Below are positions 1 to 21,725 of a stretch of DNA of 64,000 nt, piece after piece. The DNA lies in contig CAZESS010000009.1 of assembly GCA_964514975.1 (NCBI GenBank), positions 944-64,943 on the forward strand. The letters are read 5' to 3'. The notes beneath the pieces were generated by a model, which worked only from the letters and a program-made list of their open reading frames with translations, had not been told where the DNA came from and did no database searches. Source of the DNA: an uncultured Thermoplasmatales archaeon. GTDB lineage: Archaea > Thermoplasmatota > E2 > UBA202 > DSCA01. The position numbers were made by a program, and so were the translations under genes. The stretch's first letter is position 1, and every line of letters starts with the position of its first letter.

Positions 1-1
1 G

Positions 2-1444: not shown

Positions 1445-1575
1445 CCCGGGCGTGGCCGCGTCATCGAGTGCAGTAAGGTTGACCCTAGCCGTTCCTGGCA
1501 CGTGAGCGTAGGTGCTGTGAGGCATGCTAGCAATATATACATAAGCTATAAATAGGTAATTTTGCTCTGTGAATC

Positions 1576-4500
1576 ATGAGGTCATCTACTTTTTTAAAGG
1601 TGGCGGCGGTATGTGTGACTGGCCTGCTGATGGTTGCTGCCGTACCCGTGACGGTATACGGCGAAGCCGAGGAGAACAACCCACATAGAACACTGCTTCC
1701 ATCATCCAGTGAACTACGGACGCTGACATACGTGATGTCGTTCAAGGAGCCGGCGCTGTCGACGCGATCCATCGAAGGGCAGATGTTCTCTGCCATCAGG
1801 ATGGATGGCTGCATGAACGTCGGTGAGACTGGCGCTCCGGCGCTGCCGGTTTACACCACGAATATCCTGTTGCCGCAGGGGGCCACGTTTGACGGGGTGC
1901 ATGTTGCGGGGACGCGGAGCATGGTGAACACGCGTGACATCAACCTGGCAGCCACGCCGATCATGCCGCAGCAGCCCATGGTGCCCATTGGAAGCGGTGA
2001 CGCTGAGTTCACGATAAACCAGGAGGCGTATGATGCTGATGAGCCGGTGCGTGACAGCCGGTATCGGGTGGTTGGCGTCGAGCATAGCCGTGGCTACACG
2101 ATATTGACGTTGAACGTGTTTCCGGTTGAGTATGTGCCGGCGGGCGGGATGTTGCATTATCATCCCCGGATGGTTATCGACGTGTCGGTGGAGCAGACCG
2201 GCGAAACCAATCGGTTTTATCGGAACAATCCGGATGACAGGGCATGGGTGGAAAACCTGGTGCTCAACCCCGGTATGACGGATACCTACACGATGCGTTC
2301 GTCCCGCAGCTATCCGGGCGGTATCTGCGACCCGGCTGACAGCTACGACTACGTCATCATCACCACCACGCATAATGGCCTGGATGGCTGGGCGACGGAC
2401 AGCACGACGCCCTACAACTGGACGAGCCTGATGGACAAGCATCAAACAGAAAACGGGCTCGCATGTACCCTGGGGACAATGCAGGATATCAATGCCGAGC
2501 CGGCATACTGGAACACGACGGCTCTGTTTAACGACACCGCGGCGCACATCAGGGAGTTCTGCCGCGACGCCTACCAGGACTGGGGCATCCAGTACGTGCT
2601 CGTCGGCGGCGATGACGAATGGATACCCCGCCGGGAGCTCCACTACGGTACGGGATGGACCGAGGAAGACATCGACTCCGACCTGTACTGGAGCAACCTC
2701 GACAAGACATTCAACGCGGACCAGGACAACGAATGGGGCGAATACGAGGGAGACCTCGGCTTCGACCTATTCTCCGAGCTTTTCATCGGATCGCTTTCAT
2801 GCGACGAGCCACAGGATGTCTCCAACTGGATGAAAAAGAGCTTCTATTATGCGGATGCGGTGGATAAGGATTATCTCGACAATGCGGCATTCTACGGCGG
2901 CAACACCGGCTGGGCATGCCAGGGCGACGACTTCATCGACTACAGCGCCATCCAGGGCACCGACGACTGGCTCGGCCCAAGCCCCCACGCCGACGGCCCC
3001 TATCCATCCTGGCTGGGCTTCCAGTACGGGTTCGAAACATGGAACACACACAACCCGGTGCAGCAGTTCAATCTCTCCGTGAAATGGACGGCTGAGCCGC
3101 CGAATCCCGGCTGGCAGGGCGGCAGCGAAACCGCGGCTATCAATGGTCTCAAAAATGATATCAGCAACGACCAGGTGACATTGATATCCGGTATCGCCCA
3201 TGCCGACTCCGGCATGTCGCTGGACGTGTATGACAGCAGCTGGGAATCTGATTATCACAACACCAAGCCGTTTTTCATCCATGACTATGGCTGCCACTGT
3301 GGCGACATGGACGCCGCCGACGACGGCGTATTGCATTCGATGCTGTTTCATTCTGACACGGAGCTTGCCTTCGCCTGCGTCTACAACACGGGCTACGGCT
3401 GGGGGAACTCCGACGGCACAAACTCGAGCAGCGCCCTGCAACAAAAAAGCTTCTGGGATTACATGTTCGACACCACGAACCATTCGGGCTCCACGATAAA
3501 CTGGCAGCTCGGCAAGGCCCACGCCTGGTCCAAGGACTACATGGCCCCGACCATCAACTGGACGACATCCGGTTCCCCCCAGGGATGGCGCGGTGTCATC
3601 CAGTGCTGCCTGCTATTTGGTGACCCGGCGCAGCGTATCAAGCCCCCGTTGCAGCCCGACCACGAAATCATCGTCAACAATCTCGACATCCCCGCAACCG
3701 TTCCGCACGGCCAAACACAGTATGTCGAAGCAAACGTGGTCAACGCCGGGAAGAACAACGAGAGCAACCTGCAGGTCAACTTCACCGTCAACGGTACCAT
3801 TGTCAACAGCACCACCATTAGCTCGCTGCCGAAGCTGACGTCGCAGCAGGTGAGCTTTGCCTGGAACCCCGACAACGGGACATACGTGGTGGGCATCGAG
3901 GTCGACGTGGTGCCCGGCGAGAATTTCACCTTCAACAACCAGATGAACAAAACAGTTGACGTGATACCGGTTCCCGACATATGGACGTCGCCGCCCGCCC
4001 TCGACTTCTATGTTGACACCGGGGACACCGACACGGCTGTCCTCACCATAGGAAACGAGGCACACGCCGAGGCAGATCTCACCTTCAACGCATCAATCTC
4101 CGGCGTCAGCGGCTGGCTGTCCGTTGCTCCGATGAGCGGCACCGTGCCGGTCGGCACCTCTATGCCCCTCGATGTCACCGTCGACGCCACCGGCATGGCC
4201 GAGGGCACATACCTGGACACCATCATCATCACCTGTAACGACCTCGACGAACCCGCGCTCGCCATCCCGGTCACGCTGTACGTCACCTACCCCAACGACG
4301 TCGGCGTCACACACATTAATAACCCGGGCAACCCGGACTGGGCCGGCAGCACCATCGTCAATGCGACGGTGTTCAACTTCGGCAGCCAGGACCAGGCAGC
4401 CGTCCCGGTCACCTGCACCATTTACGAGGGCATCCTGGAATACACCGAGGACTTCGAGCTCGACGACGGCGGATACACCCACAGCCAGGGTTCCGGCCCC

Positions 4501-5685
4501 GGAAGTATCGACGACTGGGAATGGGGCACGCCGACATCGGGGCCATACAGCGCACATTCCGGCGTCAACGTATGGGCGACACACATCGCGGGAGACCACA
4601 GCAACAGCGCAGACAGCGTGCTGAACTCGGTCAGCGTCGACCTGAGCCTGTACCCCCTGCCCGAGCTCCGGTTCTGGCACTGGGCGGATGTCACCCAGTA
4701 TGACTGTGGCAACGTGAAGATTTCGACGGATGGCGGCAGCACATGGAATATTCTCTACCCTCAGGGAGGATACACGGGCACGGCGACGAGCGGCAACCAG
4801 GGCATCCCCGGTGAGCCGGCTTTCACAACAAACACTGCAGGGTGGGAAGAGGTCATCTTCGATTTAGATGCCTACGCCAGCGATACCGTCATTATCCGGT
4901 GGCATTTCGGGTCGACCTCCGGCACCACGCACCCCGGATGGTATCTAGACGATGTAACGATACGATCAGGACTGGCTCCGCTGGACACGGGTGACATTAT
5001 CTACAGCGCCACCGAAACGATATCCGTGGATTCATACACGGCATCCTACGCCCTGTTTACACCTCCATGGGATGCAGCCGTTGGAAACTACACGATACAG
5101 GTCGGTACACAGCTCCCCGGTGACCAGGACAACGGCAACAACCAAACCGCGACCACCGTACAAATAATGGAGCCGCCCATCACCACGGTCGACTTCCAAC
5201 TGTCCGAGGGCTGGAATCTCATATCCATTCCCATAGAAAACAACTACACCGCCGGCACGCTGGGTGAAAACATTTCAGGCTGCAGCATTGTCAGCCGATG
5301 GAACGCAGGTACATTCGAATCCTTTGTGGTCGGCATATCCTCACCATCGGCGGATTTCCCCGTACAAAACGGGGTGGGATACTTCGCCTATGTAGACAAT
5401 GCCACTGAGTTTAACGTAACAGGGCAACCGATACCCAGCGTATCCGTCCCGCTCTACCAGGGCTGGAACATCATCGGATGGTACAAGGGCGCATCTACCA
5501 TGGCGAGCAGCCTCGGCGGCAGCATAGCCAATTGTAGCATCGTCAGCAAATGGAACGCCGCCACCAGTACTTTTGCCTCCTACCTCGTGGGCGTGTCACC
5601 GCCAGCCATGGACTTCCTCATCATCCAGGGAGACGGTGTGTTCCTCTACGTCGACGAAAACGGCACCTGGCGCGGAGAAGGATAA
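1576..5685 (+). CDS. Large secreted peptidase C25 (gingipain)-like protein with CARDB-like adhesion domains and the C-terminal tandem GWN-type domains (1369 aa)
   Basis: It has a Sec signal peptide (MRSSTFLKVAAVCVTGLLMVAAVPVTVYG). The segment YDYVIITT...AAHIREFCRDAYQDWGIQYVLVGGDDEWIP resembles the C25 propeptide/catalytic region. CARDB-like blocks are present (VEANVVNAGKNNESNLQVNFTVNG...). The tandem C-terminal domain is shared with ORF 2..1444. N-glycosylation sequons are abundant. Confidence 0.6.
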   Translation: MRSSTFLKVAAVCVTGLLMVAAVPVTVYGEAEENNPHRTLLPSSSELRTLTYVMSFKEPALSTRSIEGQMFSAIRMDGCMNVGETGAPALPVYTTNILLPQGATFDGVHVAGTRSMVNTRDINLAATPIMPQQPMVPIGSGDAEFTINQEAYDADEPVRDSRYRVVGVEHSRGYTILTLNVFPVEYVPAGGMLHYHPRMVIDVSVEQTGETNRFYRNNPDDRAWVENLVLNPGMTDTYTMRSSRSYPGGICDPADSYDYVIITTTHNGLDGWATDSTTPYNWTSLMDKHQTENGLACTLGTMQDINAEPAYWNTTALFNDTAAHIREFCRDAYQDWGIQYVLVGGDDEWIPRRELHYGTGWTEEDIDSDLYWSNLDKTFNADQDNEWGEYEGDLGFDLFSELFIGSLSCDEPQDVSNWMKKSFYYADAVDKDYLDNAAFYGGNTGWACQGDDFIDYSAIQGTDDWLGPSPHADGPYPSWLGFQYGFETWNTHNPVQQFNLSVKWTAEPPNPGWQGGSETAAINGLKNDISNDQVTLISGIAHADSGMSLDVYDSSWESDYHNTKPFFIHDYGCHCGDMDAADDGVLHSMLFHSDTELAFACVYNTGYGWGNSDGTNSSSALQQKSFWDYMFDTTNHSGSTINWQLGKAHAWSKDYMAPTINWTTSGSPQGWRGVIQCCLLFGDPAQRIKPPLQPDHEIIVNNLDIPATVPHGQTQYVEANVVNAGKNNESNLQVNFTVNGTIVNSTTISSLPKLTSQQVSFAWNPDNGTYVVGIEVDVVPGENFTFNNQMNKTVDVIPVPDIWTSPPALDFYVDTGDTDTAVLTIGNEAHAEADLTFNASISGVSGWLSVAPMSGTVPVGTSMPLDVTVDATGMAEGTYLDTIIITCNDLDEPALAIPVTLYVTYPNDVGVTHINNPGNPDWAGSTIVNATVFNFGSQDQAAVPVTCTIYEGILEYTEDFELDDGGYTHSQGSGPGSIDDWEWGTPTSGPYSAHSGVNVWATHIAGDHSNSADSVLNSVSVDLSLYPLPELRFWHWADVTQYDCGNVKISTDGGSTWNILYPQGGYTGTATSGNQGIPGEPAFTTNTAGWEEVIFDLDAYASDTVIIRWHFGSTSGTTHPGWYLDDVTIRSGLAPLDTGDIIYSATETISVDSYTASYALFTPPWDAAVGNYTIQVGTQLPGDQDNGNNQTATTVQIMEPPITTVDFQLSEGWNLISIPIENNYTAGTLGENISGCSIVSRWNAGTFESFVVGISSPSADFPVQNGVGYFAYVDNATEFNVTGQPIPSVSVPLYQGWNIIGWYKGASTMASSLGGSIANCSIVSKWNAATSTFASYLVGVSPPAMDFLIIQGDGVFLYVDENGTWRGEG

Positions 5686-5845
5686 GCACCCCTCTTTCCC
5701 CTTTTTTATTCTATTCAGTTCGTCATTACGATTGATACCTGTTCCCGTTATTTTGTAAACTATCATGGTTTCGGTGAGATTGTGGCCCCGCGACTGGAAT
5801 GGAGATATCGGAATAATTAGTGATATACTATTTTGCAAATGCGAA

Positions 5846-5859
5846 ATATATAAATATAG
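5846..5859 (+). promoter_or_regulatory. Candidate archaeal TATA box (atatataaatata) flanked by an imperfect inverted repeat, upstream of the pilin-like operon
   Basis: It is an AT-rich element about 30 nt upstream of ATG 5888. TTGCAAATGC (5833-5842) and GCATTTGTAA (5866-5875) form a 9/10 inverted repeat around it. Confidence 0.4.
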
Positions 5860-5887
5860 AAAATAGCATTTGTAATGCGGGTGAAAC

Positions 5888-6346
5888 ATGCATTGCTTTT
5901 TGGAAGATCAGCGAGGCATTGAAGGCCTGCCCATGAAGCTGATCATCATCGTGGTGATTGCCGGGGCCGTGCTGGCGGCGGTGCTGATGATGATACCCGA
6001 GGGAACCGGTACATTAAACGCCGAATGCATTTCTGTCGATGGCAACAGCGGACATCTCAAGACGGTATCTGCCGCATCGGGAGAGATATCGGTCGGCAGC
6101 TTTGACGTCACCGTACAAGTAACCGACGGCGACGGCGACCCGGTCGCCGATGCAGATGTTACGCTCATCGGAGCGAACGGAGCGGGAGCCGGCAAAACCG
6201 GGGGAGACGGAGAGGTAACGGTTACGGTACAAAATGCCAGACTGGACACCAACGAAGAAAAGGACTATGTGAGCGTCGAGGTGACCGCATCAGGGCACCA
6301 CAGCTACGAAGAAGAGCAGTTTGTCGTGATTGCCAGAACCGGATAA
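5888..6346 (+). CDS. Type IV pilin-like protein with class III signal peptide (DQRG|IEGLPMKLIIIVVIAGAVLAAVLMMI) and a beta-rich Gly/Asp/Thr-rich domain
   Basis: It has the D-x-R-G motif followed by a hydrophobic helix. The globular part is rich in D/G/T/V (GDGDPVADADVTLIGANGAGAGKTGGDGEVTVTV). It is the first gene of a co-directional operon. Confidence 0.55.
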   Translation: MHCFLEDQRGIEGLPMKLIIIVVIAGAVLAAVLMMIPEGTGTLNAECISVDGNSGHLKTVSAASGEISVGSFDVTVQVTDGDGDPVADADVTLIGANGAGAGKTGGDGEVTVTVQNARLDTNEEKDYVSVEVTASGHHSYEEEQFVVIARTG

Positions 6347-6349
6347 CCC

Positions 6350-6769
6350 ATGCCCACCTTTTTATCCGATGCCCGGGGCGTGCTCGGTCTGCCGCTGCGA
6401 ATGGTCGTCGCGTTGATAATAGGCGGCGCGGCGCTCGGCACGGTCACCTATTACACGGCGATGCACTGCTGGACGCCTGGACACCTCAAAGTGGCCTATG
6501 AACCAGACGTGGTGGAAGAAGGACCCACGTCGATTACGGTCACAGTCAACGATGCCGACGGCACCCCGGTGCAGGATGCCTCCGTGGCCGTAACGGGGCT
6601 TGGGGCAGGCGGGGGCAACACGACGAACGCCGAGGGCACAGCAGTGATCAGGGTCACATCTCAACTTCCGGACGGTCGACGCGAAGGATATCTTGATATC
6701 ATGGTAACGGCGACCGGCTGCTACAAACAATACAGCCAGGATGACGCGATAAAAGTTGTGAAAGGATAA
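6350..6769 (+). CDS. Type IV pilin-like protein, paralog of the previous gene (DARG|VLGLPLRMVVALIIGGAALGTV)
   Basis: It has the same N-terminal architecture and the same D/G/T-rich domain (TVNDADGTPVQDASVAVTGLGAGGGNTTNAEGTAVIRV). A 3-nt gap separates it from the upstream gene. Confidence 0.55.
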   Translation: MPTFLSDARGVLGLPLRMVVALIIGGAALGTVTYYTAMHCWTPGHLKVAYEPDVVEEGPTSITVTVNDADGTPVQDASVAVTGLGAGGGNTTNAEGTAVIRVTSQLPDGRREGYLDIMVTATGCYKQYSQDDAIKVVKG

Positions 6770-6770
6770 C

Positions 6771-7415
6771 ATGGACATCGGTTTCGGGAAAAAGGAAAAT
6801 CGGGCGGACGACAGGCAAGACATGGACATCGGCGATATGCGCGGGTCGCTGCGTAAACTGGAGCAAACGATCGAAAGCCTGAGCACACGCCTCGACGCCG
6901 TCGAGCGGCGGCTATCAGACATGGATTTCGAAGGACCGGTTGTGATGGACACCGAAAACAGGCCATCGCCACACCCCAGCATCCGGCAGCTATCCAAAAA
7001 AATAAACAGTGAGATAACGCAGCTGCAGCAGGAACTACAGGAGATAAAACGGGCACAGGCAGATACACACCAACCAGGCAAGGCAGGCCAGCAGTCGAGC
7101 GCATCGCCGACCGTGATCCCCGCAGGAAAAAACAACCGGGGAGGCAGCGATGCGCACAGAAAAAAAGTGGCGGAGCTTGAACGAAAAATGGAAGTGCTGG
7201 AAGGACAAAAGGCAACCGTTCAGGTCGGGCGGATAGAGATACCTCTCGAAATCTCTGGTATCGTCGGCGGGATGCTGGCGTTTCTCATTGCAGCGCTGCT
7301 ATTTCAGGGACATAGAGGCCTGGTTGCATCTCCTGCATTTGTCGCATCTCTCGGCGTTTTACTGGTTATCGCAGCCGCATGTAAAACCTATCTTGTCAAC
7401 GTGGCACAACGATGA
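6771..7415 (+). CDS. Coiled-coil protein with two C-terminal transmembrane helices (tail-anchored), operon member
   Basis: The central part is heptad-like and charged (LRKLEQTIESLSTRLDAVERRLSDM...QLQQELQEIKRAQ). The C-terminus is hydrophobic (IVGGMLAFLIAALLF...LGVLLVIAAA). A 1-nt gap separates it from the upstream gene. Confidence 0.5.
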   Translation: MDIGFGKKENRADDRQDMDIGDMRGSLRKLEQTIESLSTRLDAVERRLSDMDFEGPVVMDTENRPSPHPSIRQLSKKINSEITQLQQELQEIKRAQADTHQPGKAGQQSSASPTVIPAGKNNRGGSDAHRKKVAELERKMEVLEGQKATVQVGRIEIPLEISGIVGGMLAFLIAALLFQGHRGLVASPAFVASLGVLLVIAAACKTYLVNVAQR

Positions 7416-7858
7416 CGAACGATATATGGCCGGATGAGACAGGCGCGTTTGAGCTCCCGGTGCAGTACACGGTCGCCATCGTGGCTGCCGCCGTTGCCGT
7501 CGCGCTCGTCAGCATTGCCGGCTATCACCTATGGCAGGACATGCAGACGAGGCATGCGGTACGAGAAGTGGAACGCATCGTAGATATGGCAACCATGATG
7601 TATGCCAACGCAGATGTGGGCACCGCTCGAACCATTAGTGTTGACTTTCCCGAGGGAATGAAAAAAGCGGGCTTTGGCTCCTTCGACCCGCGAAGCGCGA
7701 ACCGCTACTACGTGGTGATGAATTGGGGTGAAAACAACACTTTTTATGCCCGAAATACAAACTTCAGCAGCGGAACCGTCCTCCACGACGGCGTCGACAG
7801 GGTCAGGCTGAAGCTGATAGATGAAGGGGGAAAACATGTTTGTGTCGAGGCTGCTTGA
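7412..7858 (+). CDS. Type IV pilin-like protein (DETG|AFELPVQYTVAIVAAAVAVALVSIAG)
   Basis: It has the class III-like motif plus an N-terminal hydrophobic helix. It overlaps the upstream gene by 4 nt. Confidence 0.5.
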   Translation: MTNDIWPDETGAFELPVQYTVAIVAAAVAVALVSIAGYHLWQDMQTRHAVREVERIVDMATMMYANADVGTARTISVDFPEGMKKAGFGSFDPRSANRYYVVMNWGENNTFYARNTNFSSGTVLHDGVDRVRLKLIDEGGKHVCVEAA

Positions 7859-8432
7859 CGACGAGCGAGGGGCAATCGCCTGGCTCCTCAGCCAGCTCGG
7901 GTTGCTGCTGGCGGCAGGCGTTCTCCTCGGGGCAATCGCCGGTCTGACCTTTTATAGCGATTGGGAAAAACGGGCGGAGGCAAAAAACATCGCATCCGGC
8001 TTTGCCACCGCCATTGAATCCGTTGCCCTGAAAGAGTTTCCAGAAAAAACGACCTACAGGTTTCCGCGCAAGGAGTACCACTACACTGTCGCCCTTTCAA
8101 CCTGCTATGTTGCCGTTAGCAGACCGGGAGGACTTGTCAACGACGACATCATTGCACGGGCGGCGCTGCTCATCCGTCCATGGCCACGTCCGCCAATGGC
8201 AAATGGCACCGGAGCATCCGGAGTGTACACCTTTCTCGGAGGGGGATTCAGGCGCGAAACAAGCATTCCGCGACATGCCTTGAACAGCGTGTTCAACCAT
8301 ACGCGGACGGCGCTTGCATCCCATCCGTATGCCATCGACGTGGACAGGCCCGTGTACATCGAAAAAATATTTATATACACCGGAGAGGGCGCCCATACAA
8401 TCAGGGAGGAATATGTCATCGTTTATCAATGA
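7821..8432 (+). CDS. Type IV pilin-like protein (DERG|AIAWLLSQLGLLLAAGVLLGAIAG)
   Basis: It has the same D-x-R-G and hydrophobic-helix N-terminus. It overlaps the upstream gene; the start could instead be M6 at 7836. Confidence 0.45.
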   Translation: MKGENMFVSRLLDDERGAIAWLLSQLGLLLAAGVLLGAIAGLTFYSDWEKRAEAKNIASGFATAIESVALKEFPEKTTYRFPRKEYHYTVALSTCYVAVSRPGGLVNDDIIARAALLIRPWPRPPMANGTGASGVYTFLGGGFRRETSIPRHALNSVFNHTRTALASHPYAIDVDRPVYIEKIFIYTGEGAHTIREEYVIVYQ

Positions 8433-8901
8433 TAGCCGGGGGATTTCGGAGGAATTCACCTCGCTGCCGGCCCTGGTGGTCGTAATGATAGGGTTTGCGC
8501 TGTTTTTCGCGCTCATCGCCGGCGTGTATCACTCCCATACCGAAAAAATGGAACGCATTGACAGCTACAGGACGGCGAATTTCGTCCTTAAAAGGATAGC
8601 CATGGAAAACGGTTCTCTGGCCCGGGATGGCGTGATGCGGGAGAGCGGCGTGGTCGACAACGACACGTTTCACCGGCTCACGGTGGACAGCCAGCGTATA
8701 CGTGAGGTGGTACAGGAAAGCGATGTCGTCGCCGTGGAGTTTGGGCTGCGGCTGCGTCATGAAAAATCGTGCCATCCGATGAAAACACCCAATATACCCT
8801 CGGACATGGATCGGGTTGCTGCCAGCATGGAGGTACCGGTGTATCTCAATGCGGCCGAGACCGTTCCCGGAGAGCTCACCGTTATCGTGTGGGAGGCATA
8901 A
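8413..8901 (+). CDS. Type IV pilin-like protein (DSRG|ISEEFTSLPALVVVMIGFALFFALIAG)
   Basis: It has the class III-like N-terminus. The start was chosen at an internal ATG of ORF 8314..8901, which overlaps the upstream gene by 20 nt. Confidence 0.45.
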   Translation: MSSFINDSRGISEEFTSLPALVVVMIGFALFFALIAGVYHSHTEKMERIDSYRTANFVLKRIAMENGSLARDGVMRESGVVDNDTFHRLTVDSQRIREVVQESDVVAVEFGLRLRHEKSCHPMKTPNIPSDMDRVAASMEVPVYLNAAETVPGELTVIVWEA

Positions 8902-8904
8902 TCC

Positions 8905-10143
8905 ATGATGCGGCAGTTGAGAACGTTTTTGTCAGACCGGTGCGGCATCTCAGCCGTACAGGACGCCGTTCTGTTCTGTGTAATGGTATCCATTGCCGGT
9001 GCCATCCTGATGCCGGCGTTTACCGGCACCATCCCGCGGGACACCCATGTGGAAAAGGAACGGGAGGAAAAAGCAGATGAGGTTTTACACCAGTTGATGG
9101 TATGCCGGGTTGATAAAACCGTTCATTTGAACGCGAAACCCGTGCTGGACGCACTGGAGGACAACACGGACATGGACATAACCCAGGGATTTCTTGGACC
9201 GGTCGTCAACGGACTGCTGCGGAGGGAGCAACGCCATCTCACCTACGCCGACCTGTGCACGGAGAGCGTGGCCTGCCAGTTCAAAGTCCTCGGGAAACGC
9301 ATCAACATTTTAACGTATAATTGTACGAACGCAGTAAAAAGAGAGATACAAGCGTTTTTATCGAATCAGCTCGGTGACGAATATCTCTACAATTTCACGG
9401 TCCAATGGCACCCCATCCCGGGATTCGATTTCGGCGGAGATTTTTCTGTCGGTCATTCCCGTCCCCCGGATGCCGACGTGTACGCCGCTACCACATACGC
9501 GGTGATGCCACCGTCGCTTTTTACCAGAGACATCGGTTTCTCCATCAGCAACATCCGCCGTTACATAGCATCGAACATTGAACACGTGGTTAACAGGTAC
9601 CGGAACGGAACCATGTCAAAGGAGCAATTGACCGGGCATCTCGAAACGGTTTCGCTCGAGGTATTTAACAAAACGATGTGGGAGGGATTCGATATCGACC
9701 ACGACGGCGATTTCGACGGGCCAATGGAGACGAAAAGCCTCGTCGACATCGTGCTTGACTACGTGTTTGGAGAGATAGGCAGTGCTCTCCAGCTCGTGTT
9801 TGACGAATCCATGCGCATGGTCACCGACATGATTGCGAACGGAATAGACAGGAACTTTGCCGTCCTTTCATCCGAGGCGCTCAAAAACAGCATTGCTGGC
9901 ATTTCCCCAACAGTCGACGCCGGAGACACCGTCGACGGCATGCGGGATACCATAACAGCACATGTGAAGGAAACGCTCAGACAGTATATCAACCAAACAT
10001 TTCAACACCGCATACAGGCAATGGTGGAGGACATCATACATGCTGGGGAAACCGCAGATATCATCACCGAGATATTGAACTGCCTTTTCCGGCACGTTGA
10101 CTTTCGCAGAGCCCGGCTGTCACTTTCAATATGGAGAGCATAA
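8905..10143 (+). CDS. Pilin-like N-terminus (DRCG|ISAVQDAVLFCVMVSIAGAIL) fused to a 380-aa domain of unknown fold
   Basis: The N-terminal motif is conserved with its neighbours. The rest has no recognisable family and is rich in D/E. Confidence 0.45.
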   Translation: MMRQLRTFLSDRCGISAVQDAVLFCVMVSIAGAILMPAFTGTIPRDTHVEKEREEKADEVLHQLMVCRVDKTVHLNAKPVLDALEDNTDMDITQGFLGPVVNGLLRREQRHLTYADLCTESVACQFKVLGKRINILTYNCTNAVKREIQAFLSNQLGDEYLYNFTVQWHPIPGFDFGGDFSVGHSRPPDADVYAATTYAVMPPSLFTRDIGFSISNIRRYIASNIEHVVNRYRNGTMSKEQLTGHLETVSLEVFNKTMWEGFDIDHDGDFDGPMETKSLVDIVLDYVFGEIGSALQLVFDESMRMVTDMIANGIDRNFAVLSSEALKNSIAGISPTVDAGDTVDGMRDTITAHVKETLRQYINQTFQHRIQAMVEDIIHAGETADIITEILNCLFRHVDFRRARLSLSIWRA

Positions 10144-10147
10144 AAAA

Positions 10148-13132
10148 ATGAAGTTCATCAATGACGAACGCGGACGCGTCCCCTTCGCGGTTCTCGGCAT
10201 ATTTTTGATCGTCGGCAGCGCGGTCACTTCGGGTATCATCACAAACCTTGAAAGAGAACGCACAAAAAATATCGCAGATACGTTGAAGTCATCCTCAATA
10301 AAAAACATGCTGAAAAACGCGGAGGCCGATATTTCACGAATGCTCTCCTATAGCTGTCTGCAGGCGTTCAAAAAAATAGGTCGGCATCCCGTGACATATT
10401 CCAATGTTTCGACGGCGGCAGCCGCCATGTATGCTGATTTCGATGGAGATGGCGAGCACCATGACGATGTGGGCGACACGGTAAAAGGCGAACGGGAGGT
10501 TATGGCGTTTAACAAAAACTGGGCCCGGAACATGGCCAGGGTGTATTTCAACACCTATCTCAACAGAACCTTTGAAGGATTCCTGTACCGGGACAATGGC
10601 TACTCCGTCGCTGTCTATGACCCCGATGGGGATGGGGCTGTCGACGACTGGAGAAATATAACATTTCGGCGCGTGGGCATGGAGTTGGAGCGCTCGGTTG
10701 CAGTTGACCTGTTGATTTCGGAGGACACCCGTGAATATTCCGTCTACTGGGTGGCATCAATACCTGACCTGTCTTTGAAGATCCGGAACCTGTCATCGGG
10801 AAAATACTGGCGTACAACGGCCAATATCAGCTGTCTGGTTCCCTCCCGCCTGCCGCTGCTTATGGAGCTGACCTACACATACCGGGACAGCATCAACGGG
10901 CTTCTCTCGCCGCTGATGGGACTCGTATCGGTCATCGGCGAGGGGTACACGGAGGCCCGGTCGCTCCTTCAGTATGCGGGCAAATACGACCTGGTCAAAA
11001 ATGTCGTGGATAACAGGTGGCTCCAGTATCTGACGAATGCCGGCCTGGTGGGCATACAATACCTCGTTTTTAACAGCGTCGACCCCATGATGGTGGCGCA
11101 GCTTGCGACACAGGTGAACGACCTCGTCGCCCGGGGTACCCGGTATGGCACATCCGCCACGTCGGATGTCCTCACCGGCATGGCTTCCCTGCCCATTGTC
11201 GCCAGTGAAGATGTGTTCAAAACGTTCGGCAGCGAAAACGACAGCGAAGCCAGGCGGACGCTCCGCAATACGACGGGGAGCCAGCACATATCACGGGCCA
11301 ATGTTTCCCTGTGGAACATGTCCAGAGCCATCCTCAACCAGACCCGGACCACCTACTATTATTACAACGACAGCACCGGTCTAAAACCCCAGAACATATG
11401 GCGGGGGTATATGTTCACGGACCAGGGATACCGGTACCGGCTTTCCTCCCCCGATGGAGACCTGGACACCGATACCGATGCACCCCTGCCGGGCTTCCGC
11501 AGGCAGTATACAGACCGCATAAACCGGTCGGTGCTGCAGGAGATACACAAAAAGGTCCGTGACACCTACAGCGCCAGTTTTTCCACCGAGCTGTCAAAAA
11601 ACGTGCTCAACGTATCATACACGGGATGCAGCCCGTCTGACCCCGACTGGAGGCATGTCGGAAGCACGGGTTCCTGGGACCTAGTCCAGAGCAGCTTCAG
11701 AAACAGCACGACGGGACGGCGCCTTCACGACGGCGAACTCCCATCCGGTTTTCCCGCCACGCCCTATCGGGAAACATGGATGCTCCGATGGAAAAGAAAC
11801 GAGACATGGGAGCACTACGAGGTGGTCAACCACACCGAGGCAGGAAATCCGGTATACGGATGGAAGGAGTATCGGGATGTCGTCCATTCCGTTGACGAAC
11901 GAGCCACGTTTGCTCTCCACGCCGATGCATACCCCCGTGATGTCAAACAGGTGATGCATGCCACGTCGGTGTTCGGCGCGCCGCCACACCAACGGCATAC
12001 CGATGACAACCTGGCGTTTCTCCTGCAGACATATGTCAACGACGGGTTCACCGATGCACGAGACCGGTATACCGATACCGCACAGAACCACGGAAAAGGA
12101 TACAACGGAACAGTTGACTCCGCACACTGGAACAACAACACTGCCGACGGCGACACCACGGGCTATGACAGGATACGATGGCTCATCGGCCGACCCGACA
12201 GCATGGGAGCAGCGGCCAGAGCGCTCTACAATATCACAAACATGATACGAGCAGACCGGGCGGCATACAGCACCATCTCCGGCCGGTATTATTCCCCGGA
12301 TGACCCGACGGTGAACCTCTCCCTCGTCGAGCGGGAACGACATGCATTGCTGCAGGAGTTCCAACGGCGCAAAAACAGCTACGTCAACCAGCAGCATTAC
12401 ATGGAGGGCGGAAAATATACGAGCGCAGCAGCCAAGGCGGTCGTCGAGATGCGGAGATGGTTCGTTGAACAGATAGCGGAACGGCTCAATACGTCCCACA
12501 CGCAATATGCCGAGGACGCGATCAACGAGAGAGTCAGCAGCCGGGATACCGGACATTTCAACGGCTACCAGACCTATCAAAACACCATCGATATGTATAA
12601 AGATGCGGTCGACCAGATGACACATGTCCAGTTCGGCAGCCAGATGCGGCTGGAGGGCAACTGGACGGAAAATGTGACCCTGACCGTCGGCACAACCCCG
12701 GACTATTTTGATTTCAACGACCCGCCGACCGGGGAAGAAAACTGGGAGTTCAACGTGAAAAACATCTGTCTTTTCGGCCCGACCGGGTTGCCGTTGCTTC
12801 CAACACCGGTCACTCCATGGGTTGTCACGATAAACAGCTGGTACATCCATGTCGACGGCCACTGGGATACGTTCATGGTGCTCGACAGCAGCGACGAAAC
12901 ACATCCAGACCCCTTGCTGGGGCACAGCGGGCAGACATGCATGCGGACAGGCCCCGAGCGTGTGAGAGACAGCGTCTGCCACCAGGATAATCCATGCCTT
13001 GGGTTTTGCACCCCGCTGACATTTGGGTTCGACACAATGAGCCTGGGTATTGTTCCGTCAGGGAAATTGCCGATTGGCGACCTGGATACTCCTGTCGAGT
13101 CAGACAGCGTCGGAAATGGAGGCAAACGATGA
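10148..13132 (+). CDS. Giant (994 aa) pilin-like protein (DERG|RVPFAVLGIFLIVGSAVTSGII) with more than 20 N-glycosylation sequons and a Cys-rich C-terminus
   Basis: The start is at MKFINDERG, immediately after the upstream stop. There are many N-x-S/T sequons. The C-terminal 60 aa hold 6 Cys (GQTCMRTG...CHQDNPCLGFC). No known domain is recognised. Confidence 0.5.
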   Translation: MKFINDERGRVPFAVLGIFLIVGSAVTSGIITNLERERTKNIADTLKSSSIKNMLKNAEADISRMLSYSCLQAFKKIGRHPVTYSNVSTAAAAMYADFDGDGEHHDDVGDTVKGEREVMAFNKNWARNMARVYFNTYLNRTFEGFLYRDNGYSVAVYDPDGDGAVDDWRNITFRRVGMELERSVAVDLLISEDTREYSVYWVASIPDLSLKIRNLSSGKYWRTTANISCLVPSRLPLLMELTYTYRDSINGLLSPLMGLVSVIGEGYTEARSLLQYAGKYDLVKNVVDNRWLQYLTNAGLVGIQYLVFNSVDPMMVAQLATQVNDLVARGTRYGTSATSDVLTGMASLPIVASEDVFKTFGSENDSEARRTLRNTTGSQHISRANVSLWNMSRAILNQTRTTYYYYNDSTGLKPQNIWRGYMFTDQGYRYRLSSPDGDLDTDTDAPLPGFRRQYTDRINRSVLQEIHKKVRDTYSASFSTELSKNVLNVSYTGCSPSDPDWRHVGSTGSWDLVQSSFRNSTTGRRLHDGELPSGFPATPYRETWMLRWKRNETWEHYEVVNHTEAGNPVYGWKEYRDVVHSVDERATFALHADAYPRDVKQVMHATSVFGAPPHQRHTDDNLAFLLQTYVNDGFTDARDRYTDTAQNHGKGYNGTVDSAHWNNNTADGDTTGYDRIRWLIGRPDSMGAAARALYNITNMIRADRAAYSTISGRYYSPDDPTVNLSLVERERHALLQEFQRRKNSYVNQQHYMEGGKYTSAAAKAVVEMRRWFVEQIAERLNTSHTQYAEDAINERVSSRDTGHFNGYQTYQNTIDMYKDAVDQMTHVQFGSQMRLEGNWTENVTLTVGTTPDYFDFNDPPTGEENWEFNVKNICLFGPTGLPLLPTPVTPWVVTINSWYIHVDGHWDTFMVLDSSDETHPDPLLGHSGQTCMRTGPERVRDSVCHQDNPCLGFCTPLTFGFDTMSLGIVPSGKLPIGDLDTPVESDSVGNGGKR

Positions 13133-13767
13133 AAAGCAAAGCACTCTGCCTCGGAATCGTATGCGCGTTGCTGGTGCTTGCAGTGATACCCCTGGCACAT
13201 GCCGGGGAGTGCAAATATGGAACAGTAGAGGCATGGGCCAGAACGCTCAACGAGGATGGTGGATGGGGCGAATGGAAAAATGCAACCGTCCATGAACGCC
13301 TTCAAACACATGAACCGTTCCAGGTAAAAGTCAGGGCTGCCACGAAGGTCGACTGCACAAGCGTAGACCTGTATCTAATCCGGGCGGGTACGACGGAGGC
13401 CTACGAGGTCGTGGATGGCCCCTCAGATATTTCTGGTGTCATCCCCCGGGGAGTTTTTCATGAAACATGCAATGCTTCATGGTCAAAAACGTACACCTGG
13501 ACTGTCAGGCCGACGGGTAACTGGACGAGGGGTACCGCTGTCCTGAACGTGAGAGGAGGATTTTATAGAGGTGGATACAAGAATGTTGATTTCACCGTCA
13601 TCGCGGCATACATCCAGGCGAAGGAATGGCAGGACGGCGGCGGAGATACGGCAGATAGCGGACATAACGGCGGCAGCATCCCGGGATGTGCGACAGTTGC
13701 AACAGTGGCCTCGATACTGGTCGCTCTGGCTGTATATCAGACACGGCATACAAAATGGCAGGAATAA
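13129..13767 (+). CDS. Surface protein with Sec signal peptide and a C-terminal PGF-CTERM-like anchor (SIPGCATVATVASILVALAVYQTRHTKWQE)
   Basis: The signal peptide is MKSKALCLGIVCALLVLAVIPLAHA. The C-terminus has a P-G-x motif, a hydrophobic helix and a basic tail. The start overlaps the upstream stop as ATGA. Confidence 0.5.
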   Translation: MKSKALCLGIVCALLVLAVIPLAHAGECKYGTVEAWARTLNEDGGWGEWKNATVHERLQTHEPFQVKVRAATKVDCTSVDLYLIRAGTTEAYEVVDGPSDISGVIPRGVFHETCNASWSKTYTWTVRPTGNWTRGTAVLNVRGGFYRGGYKNVDFTVIAAYIQAKEWQDGGGDTADSGHNGGSIPGCATVATVASILVALAVYQTRHTKWQE

Positions 13768-14336
13768 TAGCCGGAAAAAGGGGAGCCGCATGGATTCCCG
13801 TGCGCCTCGTCATCAGCATCGTTGTAGCAGCCGCGATTATTGCCGTCGTGTTCCTGGGGCTGCAGCAGGCAAACAAAACCTCGGCACAAAGCAAGATAGA
13901 GCAAGAATGCGACAGGCTAACCGCAACTCTTTCAACAATGGTTGCGAGCGGCGATGCCCGGAACGTAGACCTTCCACATGACCCGCGGGGAGACATGAGA
14001 ACCGTTGAACTGTCGCTGCCCGACGACACGTCATATCTCGGGCTTGGCGTGAACCCTGATGTGAATGGTGACGGCCATCTTGAGGATGGATTGACCGGCA
14101 ACGGCTCCTGCATTTTTTACCGGATGGACGGCATGAGCGAGCGGGCTATATGGGATGTCGGCGACATCAAATTCAGGAAGGGACGAAAAATCGATGGTAG
14201 ATGGGTGCTTGCACAGCCACAGCAGGGATACGTTATCAGGGGCGGCGGAAAACAGGTAATTACCTTTGAACTGGTCCAGGAATCCTCCGGCAATCGGTAT
14301 GTCCTCGTTCTGGCGCATGATGCTGTAGCCATGTAA
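13755..14336 (+). CDS. Type IV pilin-like protein (GKRG|AAWIPVRLVISIVVAAAIIAVVFLGL), last gene of the operon
   Basis: It has the class III-like N-terminus. It overlaps the upstream gene by 13 nt. A convergent tRNA gene follows it. Confidence 0.5.
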   Translation: MAGIIAGKRGAAWIPVRLVISIVVAAAIIAVVFLGLQQANKTSAQSKIEQECDRLTATLSTMVASGDARNVDLPHDPRGDMRTVELSLPDDTSYLGLGVNPDVNGDGHLEDGLTGNGSCIFYRMDGMSERAIWDVGDIKFRKGRKIDGRWVLAQPQQGYVIRGGGKQVITFELVQESSGNRYVLVLAHDAVAM

Positions 14337-14371
14337 AAAGGGTCAGTTCGCATCCGGGGAGAGCGCGTTAA

Positions 14372-14444
14372 AGCCGCCCCCGGGAATTGAACCCGGGACC
14401 TATTCCTTACCAAGGAATCGCTATACCACTAAGCCAGGGCGGCT
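14372..14444 (-). tRNA. tRNA-Thr (anticodon GGU)
   Basis: The cloverleaf is GCCGCCC|TGGCTTAGTGGTATAGCG|ATTCCTTGGTAAGGAAT...GGTTCAATTCC...GGGCGGC. The anticodon loop is TTGGTAA. No CCA is encoded. A TATA-like element (tatttaataatt) lies about 25 nt upstream. Confidence 0.8.
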
Positions 14445-14566
14445 GCAAAGGGGAATATGGAGTGCTGTATTTAATAATTGTCGTAATTCCCGTCCATGAT
14501 GTTCTACCAAATGGATTGTGGCAAAAAATAAAAAACAGAAAAAAGGGAAAAGGAGATGAGGGTCGT

Positions 14567-16156
14567 TTACTCGACGCCCAATACAAAGGGCCCGAGGACG
14601 AATCCACTCGTTGTTTTTTCCGCGTCGCCTGCAGTGACCGCTATGTCGACGGAACCGATACCCAGCACGAGGCCGGTGTCAATGTCGGTGGAGCTACCTG
14701 CGGGAAGGCTGTCGATGGTGCCAGTCGCCTCGCCGCCGAGGAAGACGGTGCCGCTGAGCGTGATGCTCCAGTCGACGTTCTCGGCATCTGCCGTTCCAGT
14801 GTTGGCAATGGTCGCGCTCACGCCGAAGCCGCCGGAGACGGTGTCGACACCCACGACGGGGACGGGGAACTGTCCGAAGTAGATGTCGCTGTTGCCGTTC
14901 CGGGTGTCGGACCAGATGGCGCCCACGGATGTGGCATCCGCGGTTGCATATTCGGAGAGGACGGTGCCGTCCTGGCCGTTCATCTGCGAGGGTGCGGACC
15001 ATGTGGCTCCGTTGTCCTCGCTTGCGGTGTAGTAGAGGTTTCCGTTTCGGACGAAGGTGCAGACGAAGGAGTCACCGGATGAGGAAACCGTTGGATACCT
15101 GTCGCTCTCGCCGGAGGTGGTCACGTAGCTCGTCTGCCAGTTGCCGCCACCGGATGACCGCAGGCAGATGATGTCCTCGTTGCCGTTTTCGTTGCTCTGC
15201 GCGACAATGACGACCTGGCCGTCCTTAGCAGCGATGCTCGGGTTCTTCATGTCGAACTCAGTGGGGATGACCGCTGCGCTGCTTGACCCCTCTAAGGGGT
15301 TGGTGAAGCTGCGGGCCCAGTACAGGGTGTTCCAGACGTCGTTTGTCTCGTTGTATATGTCCCAGGTTCCCCAGATCATGTCCTCCTGTTTGTCCATGGT
15401 GACCGCGCTGGTGTTGGCGCCGTCCATGCTGAGCCAGCTGATGTAGCCGGAGCCCTCCTCGTCCGGGCTGGCGAAAAACATGTGGGGGCCGTTGGTGATA
15501 TCGTAGTCCTCGTAGTCGGTGGATGCGACACCGGTTATCGCGCCGTATTCCCACTGTTCCTGGCTGTTGTGGCAGGCGATGTCGAGGGCGTGGATGTTCG
15601 ACCAGCCGTATGATGACCAGTCCCAGTACACGAGCGACCATGTCTCGGTGTTGGTGATGTCGAGCACCTCGAGCAGGTACTGGTAGCCGCCCTGTGTCAG
15701 CCCGCTGAACGTGCCGTAGAAGGTGTTGCCGCCCCAGTGGGCGATGTCGGGGTAGTCCTCGACGCCCTGAATATCGAAGTAGCCGGCGGATTCATAGGTC
15801 TGGCCGCCGTCCATTGAAAGGGCCATTGCGATGTTGCGCTCCATCATGGTTGGCGCGAGGGTGTAGCCGACGAAATAGGTCGACCCGGATGTGGCCATGG
15901 TTGGATGCAGTTCGTTGTCCTGCGTGGCTATGACCTCGGTGTCGAGCGGATATGCCATTGGCCGCCATGCGTTTTCGACGACGGTCGGCGACGCTTCAAG
16001 GGTGTGGGCTGCTTCGTCGACGGGGACTGCCTCTATCGAGGAGGTGCCAATCGGTGTGATGGTATGTGTTGTTTCTTGTGGCGCGACGAGTAAGTTCGCT
16101 GTTCCTATTCCTGCTGCGAACAGGAAAACAATTCCTAGTGCTATTGCTTTTTTCAT
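14567..16156 (-). CDS. Secreted BNR/Asp-box repeat protein (sialidase/glycosidase-like beta-propeller)
   Basis: It has a signal peptide (MKKAIALGIVFLFAAGIGTA). Asp-box motifs S-x-D-x-G-x-T-W/Y are present (SMDGGQTY, SEDNGATWS, SDTRNGNSDIY). Confidence 0.55.
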   Translation of the reverse strand: MKKAIALGIVFLFAAGIGTANLLVAPQETTHTITPIGTSSIEAVPVDEAAHTLEASPTVVENAWRPMAYPLDTEVIATQDNELHPTMATSGSTYFVGYTLAPTMMERNIAMALSMDGGQTYESAGYFDIQGVEDYPDIAHWGGNTFYGTFSGLTQGGYQYLLEVLDITNTETWSLVYWDWSSYGWSNIHALDIACHNSQEQWEYGAITGVASTDYEDYDITNGPHMFFASPDEEGSGYISWLSMDGANTSAVTMDKQEDMIWGTWDIYNETNDVWNTLYWARSFTNPLEGSSSAAVIPTEFDMKNPSIAAKDGQVVIVAQSNENGNEDIICLRSSGGGNWQTSYVTTSGESDRYPTVSSSGDSFVCTFVRNGNLYYTASEDNGATWSAPSQMNGQDGTVLSEYATADATSVGAIWSDTRNGNSDIYFGQFPVPVVGVDTVSGGFGVSATIANTGTADAENVDWSITLSGTVFLGGEATGTIDSLPAGSSTDIDTGLVLGIGSVDIAVTAGDAEKTTSGFVLGPFVLGVE

Positions 16157-16283
16157 GCGTATCTAGCCTCCAAGAGGAGAATACCATACTTGTTTATATA
16201 CTTATCGACACCGGTGCTCCGAGTGCCGCCCGGATGCTGCATGTATCGTTAACCTATAAATACAGGCGGGGATATGTTGACCT

Positions 16284-17948: not shown

Positions 17949-17979
17949 GTTTTTATTATATCCCTTATTGGGGGACTCC

Positions 17980-19179
17980 ATGATAGCTCCGTCAGTGCGC
18001 TCTGAGGGTGTCAACTATGCCATCCGCGAGGTGGTGCTGCCCGCCCGGAAGCTCAAGCGGCAGGGCATCGACATCATGGAGCTCAACATCGGTGACCCGA
18101 TTGCCTATGACTTTGACACGCCGCAGCACATCATGGACGCCCTGTACCGGGGAGCCCGGGAGGGATACAACGGATATGCTCCCTCGGAGGGCTACCCCGA
18201 GCTGCGGGAAAAGATAGCGGAGCGGGAACGCCGCCGCAACAACGTTGACTACGACATCGAGGACATCTGCGTGACCACGGGTGTGACCGAGGCACTCCAG
18301 ATTTTTTTGTCGGCCACGCTGAACGAGGGCGACGAGCTGCTGGTGCCCGGCCCGACGTATCCGCCCTACAACCTGATGACCAGGTTCAACGGCGCGGAGC
18401 CCGTTGCCTATCGGACCATCGAGGAGGAACACTGGCAGCCCGATGTCGACGACGTGGAGCGCAAGATAACCGACCGGACGAAGGCCATGGTCATTATCAA
18501 CCCCAACAATCCGACGGGTGCACTGTACCCCCGGGACACGGTCAGGGAGATGGTGGACATCGCCGTTGACCATGGCATCCCGGTTATCTCCGACGAGATA
18601 TATGACGACATCACGTTCGACCGCGACCATCATTCGACGGCCTCGCTGGCGAGCGATGCACCCATCATCACGTTCAACGGCTTCTCCAAGGTGTACCTGG
18701 TGCCCGGGTGGCGGATGGGCTATGCGATGTTCAACAACCCCGGCGGGCAGCTCGACCGGGTGCAGGATGCCTTTTACCGCATCGCCCGCGCTCGCCTGTG
18801 CGCCAACTCGGTCTGCCAGCGGGGCATGATCGCCGCACTGGACGGCTCGCAGGACCACATTCCCGAGATGGTCGCCACGCTGCGCGAGCGCAGCCGGTTT
18901 GCGCACAAGCGATTGAACGAGATACCGGGGATTTCGTCTGCGCGGCCCGACGGCGCGTTTTACATTTTCCCCAAAATCGAGGCCATCGACGGCTGGCGGG
19001 ATGACAAGGAGTTCGTCCTCGACGTGCTCAACACCGCCCATGTTTTACTCGTTCATGGCTCCGGGTTTTCTCCCGAGTATGGCGCCGGCCATTTCCGGGC
19101 GGTGACGCTGCCGCCGATGGAGACCCTGGAGGAAGCCTTTAATAGGCTGGACTCTTTCATGAGGGAGAGGATAGCATGA
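17980..19179 (+). CDS. Class I/II pyridoxal-phosphate aminotransferase (alanine/aspartate aminotransferase family)
   Basis: It shows the fold I aminotransferase pattern, including SFSKVYLVPGWRMGY with the PLP-binding Lys. The start was chosen at MIAPS. Confidence 0.7.
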   Translation: MIAPSVRSEGVNYAIREVVLPARKLKRQGIDIMELNIGDPIAYDFDTPQHIMDALYRGAREGYNGYAPSEGYPELREKIAERERRRNNVDYDIEDICVTTGVTEALQIFLSATLNEGDELLVPGPTYPPYNLMTRFNGAEPVAYRTIEEEHWQPDVDDVERKITDRTKAMVIINPNNPTGALYPRDTVREMVDIAVDHGIPVISDEIYDDITFDRDHHSTASLASDAPIITFNGFSKVYLVPGWRMGYAMFNNPGGQLDRVQDAFYRIARARLCANSVCQRGMIAALDGSQDHIPEMVATLRERSRFAHKRLNEIPGISSARPDGAFYIFPKIEAIDGWRDDKEFVLDVLNTAHVLLVHGSGFSPEYGAGHFRAVTLPPMETLEEAFNRLDSFMRERIA

Positions 19180-20240: not shown

Positions 20241-20243
20241 CGG

Positions 20244-21632: not shown

Positions 21633-21687
21633 GCATGATATCCGGCAGCGTTATATGAACTCTTTGGAAAATGTCGCCTCAACCTAA

Positions 21688-21699: not shown

Positions 21700-21725
21700 G
21701 ATTTCCCATGCCATACATCAGACCT

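Follow-up and report, generated by a model that had tools for sequence, protein, structure and literature searches.

A Thermoplasmatales operon of predicted pilin-like proteins, arranged like the haloarchaeal subclade 4F pilus locus and carrying no ATPase or TadC gene

Archaeal type IV pili (T4P) of subclade 4F are encoded in Haloarcula hispanica by a locus that starts with arCOG07564 and arCOG10216, continues with an ATPase (arCOG01818) and a TadC protein (arCOG01814), and ends with arCOG04673, arCOG05166, arCOG06291, arCOG02945, a helix-turn-helix (HTH) gene and a WcaG epimerase gene (Table S4, PMC4858521). The arCOG10216 protein was named the 'predicted major pilin', arCOG02945 is a surface protein of about 1000 residues, arCOG07564 is an Asp-rich coiled-coil component, a coiled-coil protein is unique to the halobacterial 4F system, and ATPases of the 4F clade often have an N-terminal Cys-rich domain (PMC4858521). 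According to a 2026 preprint, 4F systems occur mainly in Halobacteria, lie close to genes for CetZ2, a CBS protein or an SMC homolog, and include the adhesin-like arCOG02945 (10.64898/2026.04.22.720090). Here we analyze ten co-directional open reading frames (ORFs), g1 to g10, located on the forward strand between nucleotides (nt) 5888 and 14336 of a 64,000-nt stretch, hereafter the window, of contig CAZESS010000009.1 from an uncultured Thermoplasmatales archaeon. This operon probably represents the pilin and accessory set of a 4F-type archaeal T4P in a split layout specific to Thermoplasmatota, with the assembly machinery encoded elsewhere.

The bridge from this operon to the haloarchaea was a single distant protein of the DUF7286 family (DUF, domain of unknown function), P0021, the only member gained in a profile search that used the g8 alignment of Thermoplasmata-type loci from Thermoplasmatota. 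Its contig (L007) carries DUF7283, DUF7285, DUF7284 and DUF7286 genes in this order; ahead of them come a gene for a polytopic membrane protein and the last part of one other gene. With P0021 as query at least 398 haloarchaeal clusters were found. The complete genomes of Haloplanus rubicundus (L010) and Halobacterium noricense (L011) have cetZ on the opposite strand beside a locus that reads DUF7310, DUF7311, a T2SSE ATPase (PF00437, ~645 residues), a polytopic protein of ~570 residues, DUF7283, DUF7285, DUF7284, DUF7286, DUF5791 and an epimerase, and 12 further metagenomic loci show the same order. By order and size this locus is, gene for gene, the 4F locus of H. hispanica; we infer the arCOG-to-DUF mapping from collinearity and size, not from sequence comparison. 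The ATPases of L010 and L011 have Cys-containing N-termini, and the CetZ neighbour and adhesin-like protein of both loci agree with the 4F description of the 2026 preprint.

Read in the same terms, the window operon consists of g1 and g2, a DUF7310-like protein (g3), a DUF7311 protein (g4), no ATPase or TadC, then g5, DUF7285 (g6), DUF7284 (g7) and DUF7286 (g8), and finally a MAST-domain protein (g9) and a second DUF7311 protein (g10). Family alignments were made from all fetched loci, and Thermoplasmatota profiles were compared with haloarchaeal profiles using hhalign; the matches were specific to the expected gene pairs, forming a diagonal. The g8 and g7 profiles matched DUF7286 (96.7%, E 3.9e-10) and DUF7284 (96.7%, E 4.1e-10), g10 matched DUF7311 (95.4%, E 1.9e-8), g6 matched DUF7285 (92.5%, E 4.9e-7, with deep alignments) and g4 matched DUF7311 (54%, E 1.3e-4, alignment A3, collinear). 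In Pfam, g8 (98.3 bits), g10 (49.4 bits) and g7 (41.6 bits) passed the threshold of 27 for these same families, and g2 scored 29.2 bits with PF24107 (DUF7382; gathering score 27.4). With four products above the gathering score, the statement of the first-pass annotation that the globular parts belong to no known family is refuted. Below threshold were g6 (22.0 bits against 27), g4 (21.7 bits) and g3 with DUF7310 (17.0 bits against 40). On profile comparison g3, g4, g6, g7, g8 and g10 can thus be regarded as homologs of DUF7310, DUF7311, DUF7285, DUF7284, DUF7286 and DUF7311, respectively, g3 and g4 weakly so, and the homologs keep the haloarchaeal order, in which the ATPase and TadC genes sit between DUF7311 and DUF7283.

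Three of the four 4F-specific pilin families are present by their Pfam equivalents (DUF7311 in g4 and g10, DUF7285 in g6, DUF7284 in g7), and by collinearity g10 would be the counterpart of arCOG10216. Further likenesses to 4F are the predicted pilins with hydrophobic N-terminal helices, the coiled-coil protein as first component and the pilin-like surface protein of about 1000 residues encoded by the last structural gene. The window operon is unlike 4F in that neither it nor its surroundings contain an ATPase or TadC gene, that it has no CetZ, CBS or SMC neighbour and no DUF5791/HTH gene, that the DUF7283 counterpart is unrecognisable, that the coiled-coil protein is membrane-anchored, and that g1, g2, g9 and the second DUF7311 gene are added. 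The host also belongs to the Thermoplasmatota, whereas 4F is mainly halobacterial, and the 4F clade itself is defined by an ATPase tree, which is inapplicable to an operon without ATPase. The proposal that the operon encodes an undescribed surface-filament system does not survive this comparison, as its families and order are those of the subclade 4F locus catalogued in 2016. The operon does correspond in spirit to a known accessory cluster, that of 4F, but not to one of the archaellum, Aap or Ups systems.

The dense packing of ten genes on one strand, as first described, is borne out. Adjacent genes are separated by 1-4 nt or overlap by 4, 38, 20, 4 and 13 nt, with ATGA start/stop overlaps at 7412 and 13129; the 0-4 nt spacing initially given for all junctions holds for most of them but not for the overlaps of 38, 20 and 13 nt. 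A Shine-Dalgarno-like GGTGA motif lies 5 nt upstream of the g1 ATG, and a candidate promoter was read upstream (Table 1). Conservation of gene order in related Thermoplasmatota, which had been proposed as a check, was found: relatives keep the order of all ten genes at protein identities of 27-92%. Compared with the 92%-identical locus L012, the ratio of nonsynonymous to synonymous substitution rates (dN/dS) is 0.12-0.44 across g1 to g10, which places each of them under purifying selection, g1 having the lowest value (0.12). Because of the conserved order and these dN/dS values, g1 to g10 are considered real genes.

Table 1. Features of the operon and of its surroundings in the window. A slash in the N-terminus column follows the Gly of the leader motif. 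Ig, immunoglobulin.
Feature	Coordinates	Strand	N-terminus	Basis or remark
Candidate archaeal promoter region	5845..5883	+		read from sequence
Candidate TATA-like AT-rich element, aaatatataaatatag	5845-5860	+		read from sequence
g1, small pilin-like protein, 152 residues, candidate filament subunit	5888-6346	+	DQRG/IEGLPMKLIIIVV	model, orthologs
g2, small pilin-like protein with Ig-like domain, 139 residues	6350-6769	+	DARG/VLGLPLRMVV	Pfam DUF7382
g3, coiled-coil protein, 214 residues	6771-7415	+		counterpart of DUF7310 / arCOG07564 by position and weak sequence similarity
g4, DUF7311-type pilin-like protein, 148 residues	7412-7858	+	DETG/AFELPVQY	hhalign; paralog of g10
g5, pilin-like membrane protein, 203 residues	7821-8432	+	DERG/AIAWLLSQLGLLL	conserved in 14 loci
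g6, DUF7285-type pilin-like protein, 162 residues	8413-8901	+	DSRG/ISEEFTSLPALVVV	hhalign
g7, DUF7284-type acidic pilin-like protein, 412 residues	8905-10143	+	DRCG/ISAVQDAVLF	Pfam, hhalign
g8, DUF7286 giant pilin-like surface protein, 994 residues	10148-13132	+	DERG/RVPFAVLGIF	hallmark gene of the 4F-type set; equals arCOG02945
g9, Sec-secreted MAST-domain surface protein, 212 residues	13129-13767	+		TIGR04209, ortholog C-termini
g10, DUF7311-type pilin-like protein, 193 residues from 13755	13755-14336 (alternative start 13686)	+	GKRG/AAWIPVRLVISIVV	Pfam, hhalign
437-residue ORF	131-1444	+		C-terminal modules of ~90 residues
1369-residue protein	1576-5685	+		C25-peptidase propeptide, CARDB, BACON-like and MAM-like domains
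tRNA-Thr(GGT)	14371-14444	-		directly after g10
Secreted multi-Ig surface protein	14567-16156	-		BNR/CARDB
Secreted multi-Ig surface protein	16284-17948	+		Y_Y_Y/PKD/Big_13
Secreted multi-Ig surface protein	35450-37456	+		Ig_VWA7/NPCBM_assoc/CARDB
Glutamate dehydrogenase and MgtE pair	56604-59361			~42 kb downstream of the operon

Eight products (g1, g2, g4, g5, g6, g7, g8 and g10) begin with a short, charged leader whose last residues are [KR]G, and a hydrophobic helix of ~19-20 residues starts 0-9 residues past this motif. The window proteins g4 and g7 read TG and RCG at the motif; orthologs of both have [KR]G, and the combination of [KR]G and hydrophobic helix is kept across orthologs at 27-60% identity. 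A nearly identical D-x-R-G had been reported for all eight: the [KR]G-type motif followed by a helix stands in each, the literal D-x-R-G in only five. Among 32 other ORFs of the window, 3 satisfied a crude motif rule as well, each of them Sec-like (Fisher p = 5e-5). The Pfam families TadE, Class_IIIsignal and N_methyl gave no match at E <= 1 among the operon products. One homolog, P0025, is automatically annotated as pseudopilin PulG (JGI). The eight [KR]G products are predicted prepilin-peptidase substrates, and the family matches together with the N-termini support the original view of type IV pilin-like products in an operon that is part of a type IV filament-type system.

The proteins g1 and g2 are paralogs (hhalign E 1e-28), and their nomination as subunit candidates remains plausible. 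A g1 model computed with AlphaFold2 from 53 sequences, with a predicted local distance difference test (pLDDT) score of 92, comprises an N-terminal helix (residues 14-34) followed by an eight-stranded Ig-like β-sandwich, a predicted architecture that fits an archaeal pilin. The N-terminal motif of g1 is invariant among 9 orthologs, and about 90 full-length relatives occur among representative sequences. For g2, weak matches to Big_1 and Invasin_D3 were also obtained. In the alignment of the g1/g2 family (A5, 53 sequences), the sole invariant residue is the Pro of a G-x-x-[GE]-L-P motif before the helix, and the residues ahead of it that resemble a cleavage site vary (KRG, NGQ, ERA). This signature is presumably unlike the canonical class III context.

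The coiled coil and tail anchor first described for g3 were both found, the latter consisting of two C-terminal transmembrane (TM) helices, at 155 and 182, that are conserved in 12 orthologs. g4 and g10 form a second paralog pair (hhalign E 6.7e-13). g5 sits at the DUF7283 position and has no Pfam match. The acidic character ascribed to g7 is confirmed by its 56 Asp and Glu against 39 Lys and Arg residues; its haloarchaeal counterpart, arCOG06291, is FlaFind-positive (Makarova Table S4, PMC4858521). The giant g8 contains 23 N-X-S/T sequons, compared with 9.2 +/- 2.7 in shuffled sequences, and five of its eight Cys lie within the last ~120 residues, in line with the more than 20 sequons and Cys-rich C-terminus attributed to it at first. 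Because of the sequon enrichment g8 is predicted to be extracellular. Its model (71 sequences, pLDDT 76.9) has a 67-residue N-terminal helix followed by α/β domains, and the C-terminal domain is conserved and β-rich. A tblastn search of PLSDB plasmids with g8 and haloarchaeal DUF7286 returned no match. The Sec signal peptide and C-terminal anchor proposed for g9 are both present. The protein scores 44.4 bits with the sarcinarray/MAST family TIGR04209 (NCBIfam; cutoff 45), and its homologs match PF27849 (MAST). Of 15 ortholog C-termini compared, most consist of a linker rich in Gly and Ser, then PGF, a TM helix and a basic tail, and the window protein reads PGC in place of PGF; this end we take, by comparison with archaeosortase A substrates, to be a PGF-CTERM-like sorting signal.

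No T2SSE ATPase or TadC/FlaJ platform gene was found in the 64-kb window with hidden Markov models (HMMs) of the haloarchaeal ATPase and TadC (the TadC model built from L007, L010 and L011), tblastn and a Walker-A/motif scan, and no A24 prepilin peptidase with a crude motif scan and Pfam searches of membrane ORFs. The absence of ATPase, platform and prepilin peptidase near the operon, noted from the start, thus extends to the whole window. Archaeal prepilin peptidases are usually encoded elsewhere in the genome. Pfam scans of 16 further window ORFs revealed surface proteins and housekeeping genes only, and no fla genes were found in the window by Pfam scans. The preprint gives as minimal definition of a type IV filament (TFF) or T4P system an ATPase, a platform, a class III peptidase and a filament protein; in the window the first three of these four parts were not found, and the [KR]G products are candidates for the fourth.

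The split layout without ATPase and TadC recurs in about 20 loci with G+C contents (GC) of 0.30-0.60 and differing flanking genes, and the named g8 relatives come from Thermoplasmatota, Thermoplasmata or Thermoplasmatales metagenome-assembled genomes (MAGs). The TyrRS of the window's contig falls into one 90%-identity cluster with a protein labelled 'Thermoplasmatota archaeon'. Parts of the operon also occur separately: g6 to g9 stand alone in L002 (8296-13602), L021 and L024, only g1, g3, g2 (on the minus strand), g4 and g5 are present in L041 (2362-5280), and L009 is without g9. In haloarchaea the counterparts of the two modules stand on opposite sides of the motor. In L042 and L043 a divergent g1-like gene with a weak DUF7382 match adjoins a complete ATPase/TadC locus, which ties the g1/g2 family to the same system. 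A complete ATPase locus from the metagenome of L012 (L032) was considered as the missing machinery and rejected, as belonging to another organism, on its GC (0.68 versus 0.60) and its tetranucleotide correlation of 0.46, compared with 0.97 for L012.

DUF7286 was also observed in fused form. In the complete-type locus L042 (1-2404 and 8867-9925) it is joined to a metallo-beta-lactamase domain in a protein of 1352 residues, and a gene for a HerA-like ATPase separates the g1-like pilin gene from that for DUF7310. In the haloarchaeal proteins P0026-P0029 and P0087 (~1150 residues), DUF7286 is fused to DUF5791 (PF23957 and PF19104). DUF5791 is by position arCOG04674, annotated as an HTH transcriptional regulator; that a presumed surface protein should be fused to a presumed cytoplasmic regulator is unexpected and casts doubt on one or the other annotation.

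Pilins that work with machinery encoded in trans have precedents in PilA1-6 with PilB3C3 of Haloferax volcanii and in pil-1 of Halobacterium salinarum (PMC4858521, PMC4292770, PMC6491452), and it has been described that pilin sets evolve modularly with respect to ATPase and TadC and that pilins occur away from this module (PMC4858521). The window operon resembles these PilA and pil-1 systems in the distance of its pilins from any machinery and in a presumed role in adhesion (PMC4858521, PMC4292770). It differs from both in that theirs are PilA-family (arCOG02416) pilins encoded by scattered single genes, whereas the window has a ten-gene operon of several families, and in that their filaments and adhesion were shown experimentally, whereas the window system is known from genes alone. 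Outside ATPase operons, arCOG02945 has been listed beside a surface protein with a C-terminal sorting motif (Makarova Table S5, PMC4858521). The g8-g9 pair and the reduced loci L002, L021 and L024 are reminiscent of that pair, g9 being compared with arCOG05173 by table description only. In bacterial TadE/TadF and in the minor pseudopilins of type II secretion systems (T2SS), a few polar residues and then Pro or hydrophobic residues come after the Gly cleavage site, and these proteins are presumed to act in priming or at the tip of a filament. The operon is like these Tad/Flp and T2SS sets, by analogy only, in co-encoding several small prepilin-like proteins, in their presumed priming or tip role and in the run of residues behind the Gly, and unlike them in its globular domains, which are unrelated.

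As part of a 4F-type pilus, the eight [KR]G products would enter the membrane and lose their leaders, up to and including the Gly, to a class III signal peptidase whose gene would lie elsewhere. An ATPase and a platform of the PilB/PilC type, likewise encoded elsewhere, would build a thin filament from g1/g2 and/or g4/g10, joined through the N-terminal helices. As low-abundance minor pilins, g5, g6, g7 and g8 may form a priming or tip complex that presents g8, presumably heavily N-glycosylated, as an adhesin. The cytoplasmic coiled coil of g3 might act at the membrane base, held by its two TM helices, and g9 would be lipid-anchored on the surface by an archaeosortase. Such a pilus would most likely attach the cell to surfaces, cells or substrates.

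Several observations weigh against this 4F-type assignment, beginning with the machinery, whose action in trans is assumed: no ATPase, platform or prepilin peptidase gene was found within +/-10 kb of about 20 related loci, and 4F systems themselves are known from comparative genomics alone. Peptidase processing is not secure, as the helix starts 3-9 residues after the Gly in most products, the haloarchaeal DUF7311 and DUF7283 proteins start straight with a hydrophobic segment and have no [KR]G leader, and an approximate FlaFind-like pattern, a caveat rather than a test, matched none of the products. The g3 match to DUF7310 (hhalign 41%, E 2.8e-4) is confined to a 28-residue LxxRLxAVERxL motif, and haloarchaeal DUF7310 is soluble and without TM helix, whereas g3 is membrane-anchored; homology of g5 with DUF7283 is unsupported (hhalign E 0.13-0.2). 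Foldseek searches with the g1 model retrieved generic Ig-like domains only (E 3e-3 and weaker) and indicated no specific pilin family, and structure searches with g8 gave no solved structural relative and none showing an adhesin. Some of these points would be accounted for by a membrane-anchored surface adhesion or envelope complex that is independent of an ATPase and includes the PGF-CTERM MAST protein, in place of an extended filament, its helices remaining uncleaved or its parts being assembled by another route. The consistent absence of ATPase and TadC in cis, at about 20 loci of varied GC and exactly at the haloarchaeal position, would suit such a complex, as would the helices that do not start directly after the Gly, the membrane anchors gained by g3, the recruitment of a Sec/archaeosortase-type surface protein and the occurrence of operon halves on their own. 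However, eight families strictly conserve [KR]G ahead of the helix, for which a plain signal anchor would have no obvious use, the haloarchaeal homologs are embedded around the ATPase/TadC pair, and archaeal pilin genes are commonly far from their machinery; we hold such a complex to be unlikely. It is quite unlikely, too, that the pilin set is independent of a PilB/PilC motor in the sense of forming an autonomous structure around DUF7286, either an anchored complex or a filament made by a g3/g9 route.

The operon might instead serve the archaellum or an Aap, Ups or PilA-type adhesion pilus, with its products as minor subunits there. Weak matches of g10 to Pilin_N (E 0.008) and Arch_flagellin (E 0.1; 13.3 bits against 29.5) and the Halobacterium salinarum archaellin at rank 16 for the g1 model (Foldseek, E 0.014) point in that direction, and a sub-threshold FlaC_arch match was seen in g3 (15 bits against 27.8). 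Yet no FlaF/FlaG, archaellin, FlaC/D/E, FlaH, Aap or Ups family was matched above threshold in the operon, and the haloarchaeal homologs have an ATPase and TadC of their own, so that we consider a role of this kind improbable. An undescribed surface-filament system of proteins in no known family could draw on the DUF numbers, of which no mention was found in the literature searched, on g1, g5 and g9, which have no counterpart inside the haloarchaeal locus, on the structural isolation of g8 and on the fact that no 4F system has been studied experimentally. It is highly improbable against the existence of Pfam families for most products, a core gene order published in 2016, and the earlier listing, in Makarova Table S5, of arCOG02945 with a sorting-motif surface protein outside ATPase operons. 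What is new relative to the published 4F systems is the Thermoplasmatota host, the consistent absence of ATPase and TadC from an otherwise collinear operon, g1/g2, the MAST/PGF-CTERM protein, the second DUF7311 protein and the membrane-anchored coiled-coil protein; the separation of pilins from machinery has partial precedent.

The tRNA-Thr gene directly after g10 is found likewise in L012 (12027-12100), L014 (13333-13405) and L015 (7255-7327). In L005 g10 and tRNA-Thr are separated by a block of ~7.7 kb (14238-22011) that holds about ten small ORFs and a phage-type integrase and looks like an integrated element targeting this tRNA gene. The idea that the operon is itself a mobile island was rejected, tRNA-Thr being a conserved neighbour and the L005 integrase element being separate. 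The glutamate dehydrogenase and MgtE pair lies directly upstream of the operon in L005 and L006 (L005 2926-5679), and its shifted position in the window therefore indicates rearrangement around the operon between related genomes.

Cell-surface genes, including three for secreted multi-Ig proteins, are abundant around the operon. The two giant secreted proteins reported upstream are present in the window but are not conserved operon neighbours in relatives. The 1369-residue protein and the 437-residue ORF both carry C-terminally two copies of a module of ~90 residues with no Pfam match and the pattern …GWN.I…W.A….FESY.VG…G.GYF.Y. The GC is 0.54-0.58 at 1-14000, a segment made up of two giant secreted-protein genes and the operon, versus 0.59-0.64 at 16000-64000; Asn/Ser/Thr-rich secreted proteins or a foreign origin could explain the lower values.

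The 4F pilus has so far come to light through comparative genomics alone; its proteins are DUFs, and neither a filament nor a function or structure has been reported for it. The present analysis opens no new category of system; it carries the 4F gene set beyond Halobacteria into Thermoplasmatota (MAGs from marine, hydrothermal and sediment sources, GC 0.30-0.60) and names candidates for the filament subunits, g1/g2 and the DUF7311 proteins, and for a giant tip protein or adhesin, DUF7286. The set splits into modules, in that the genes of both flanks form a single operon from which the motor is missing, and each half is also found alone. Makarova et al. proposed a modular evolution with 'pilins in trans' (PMC4858521), of which this is a clear case in nature.

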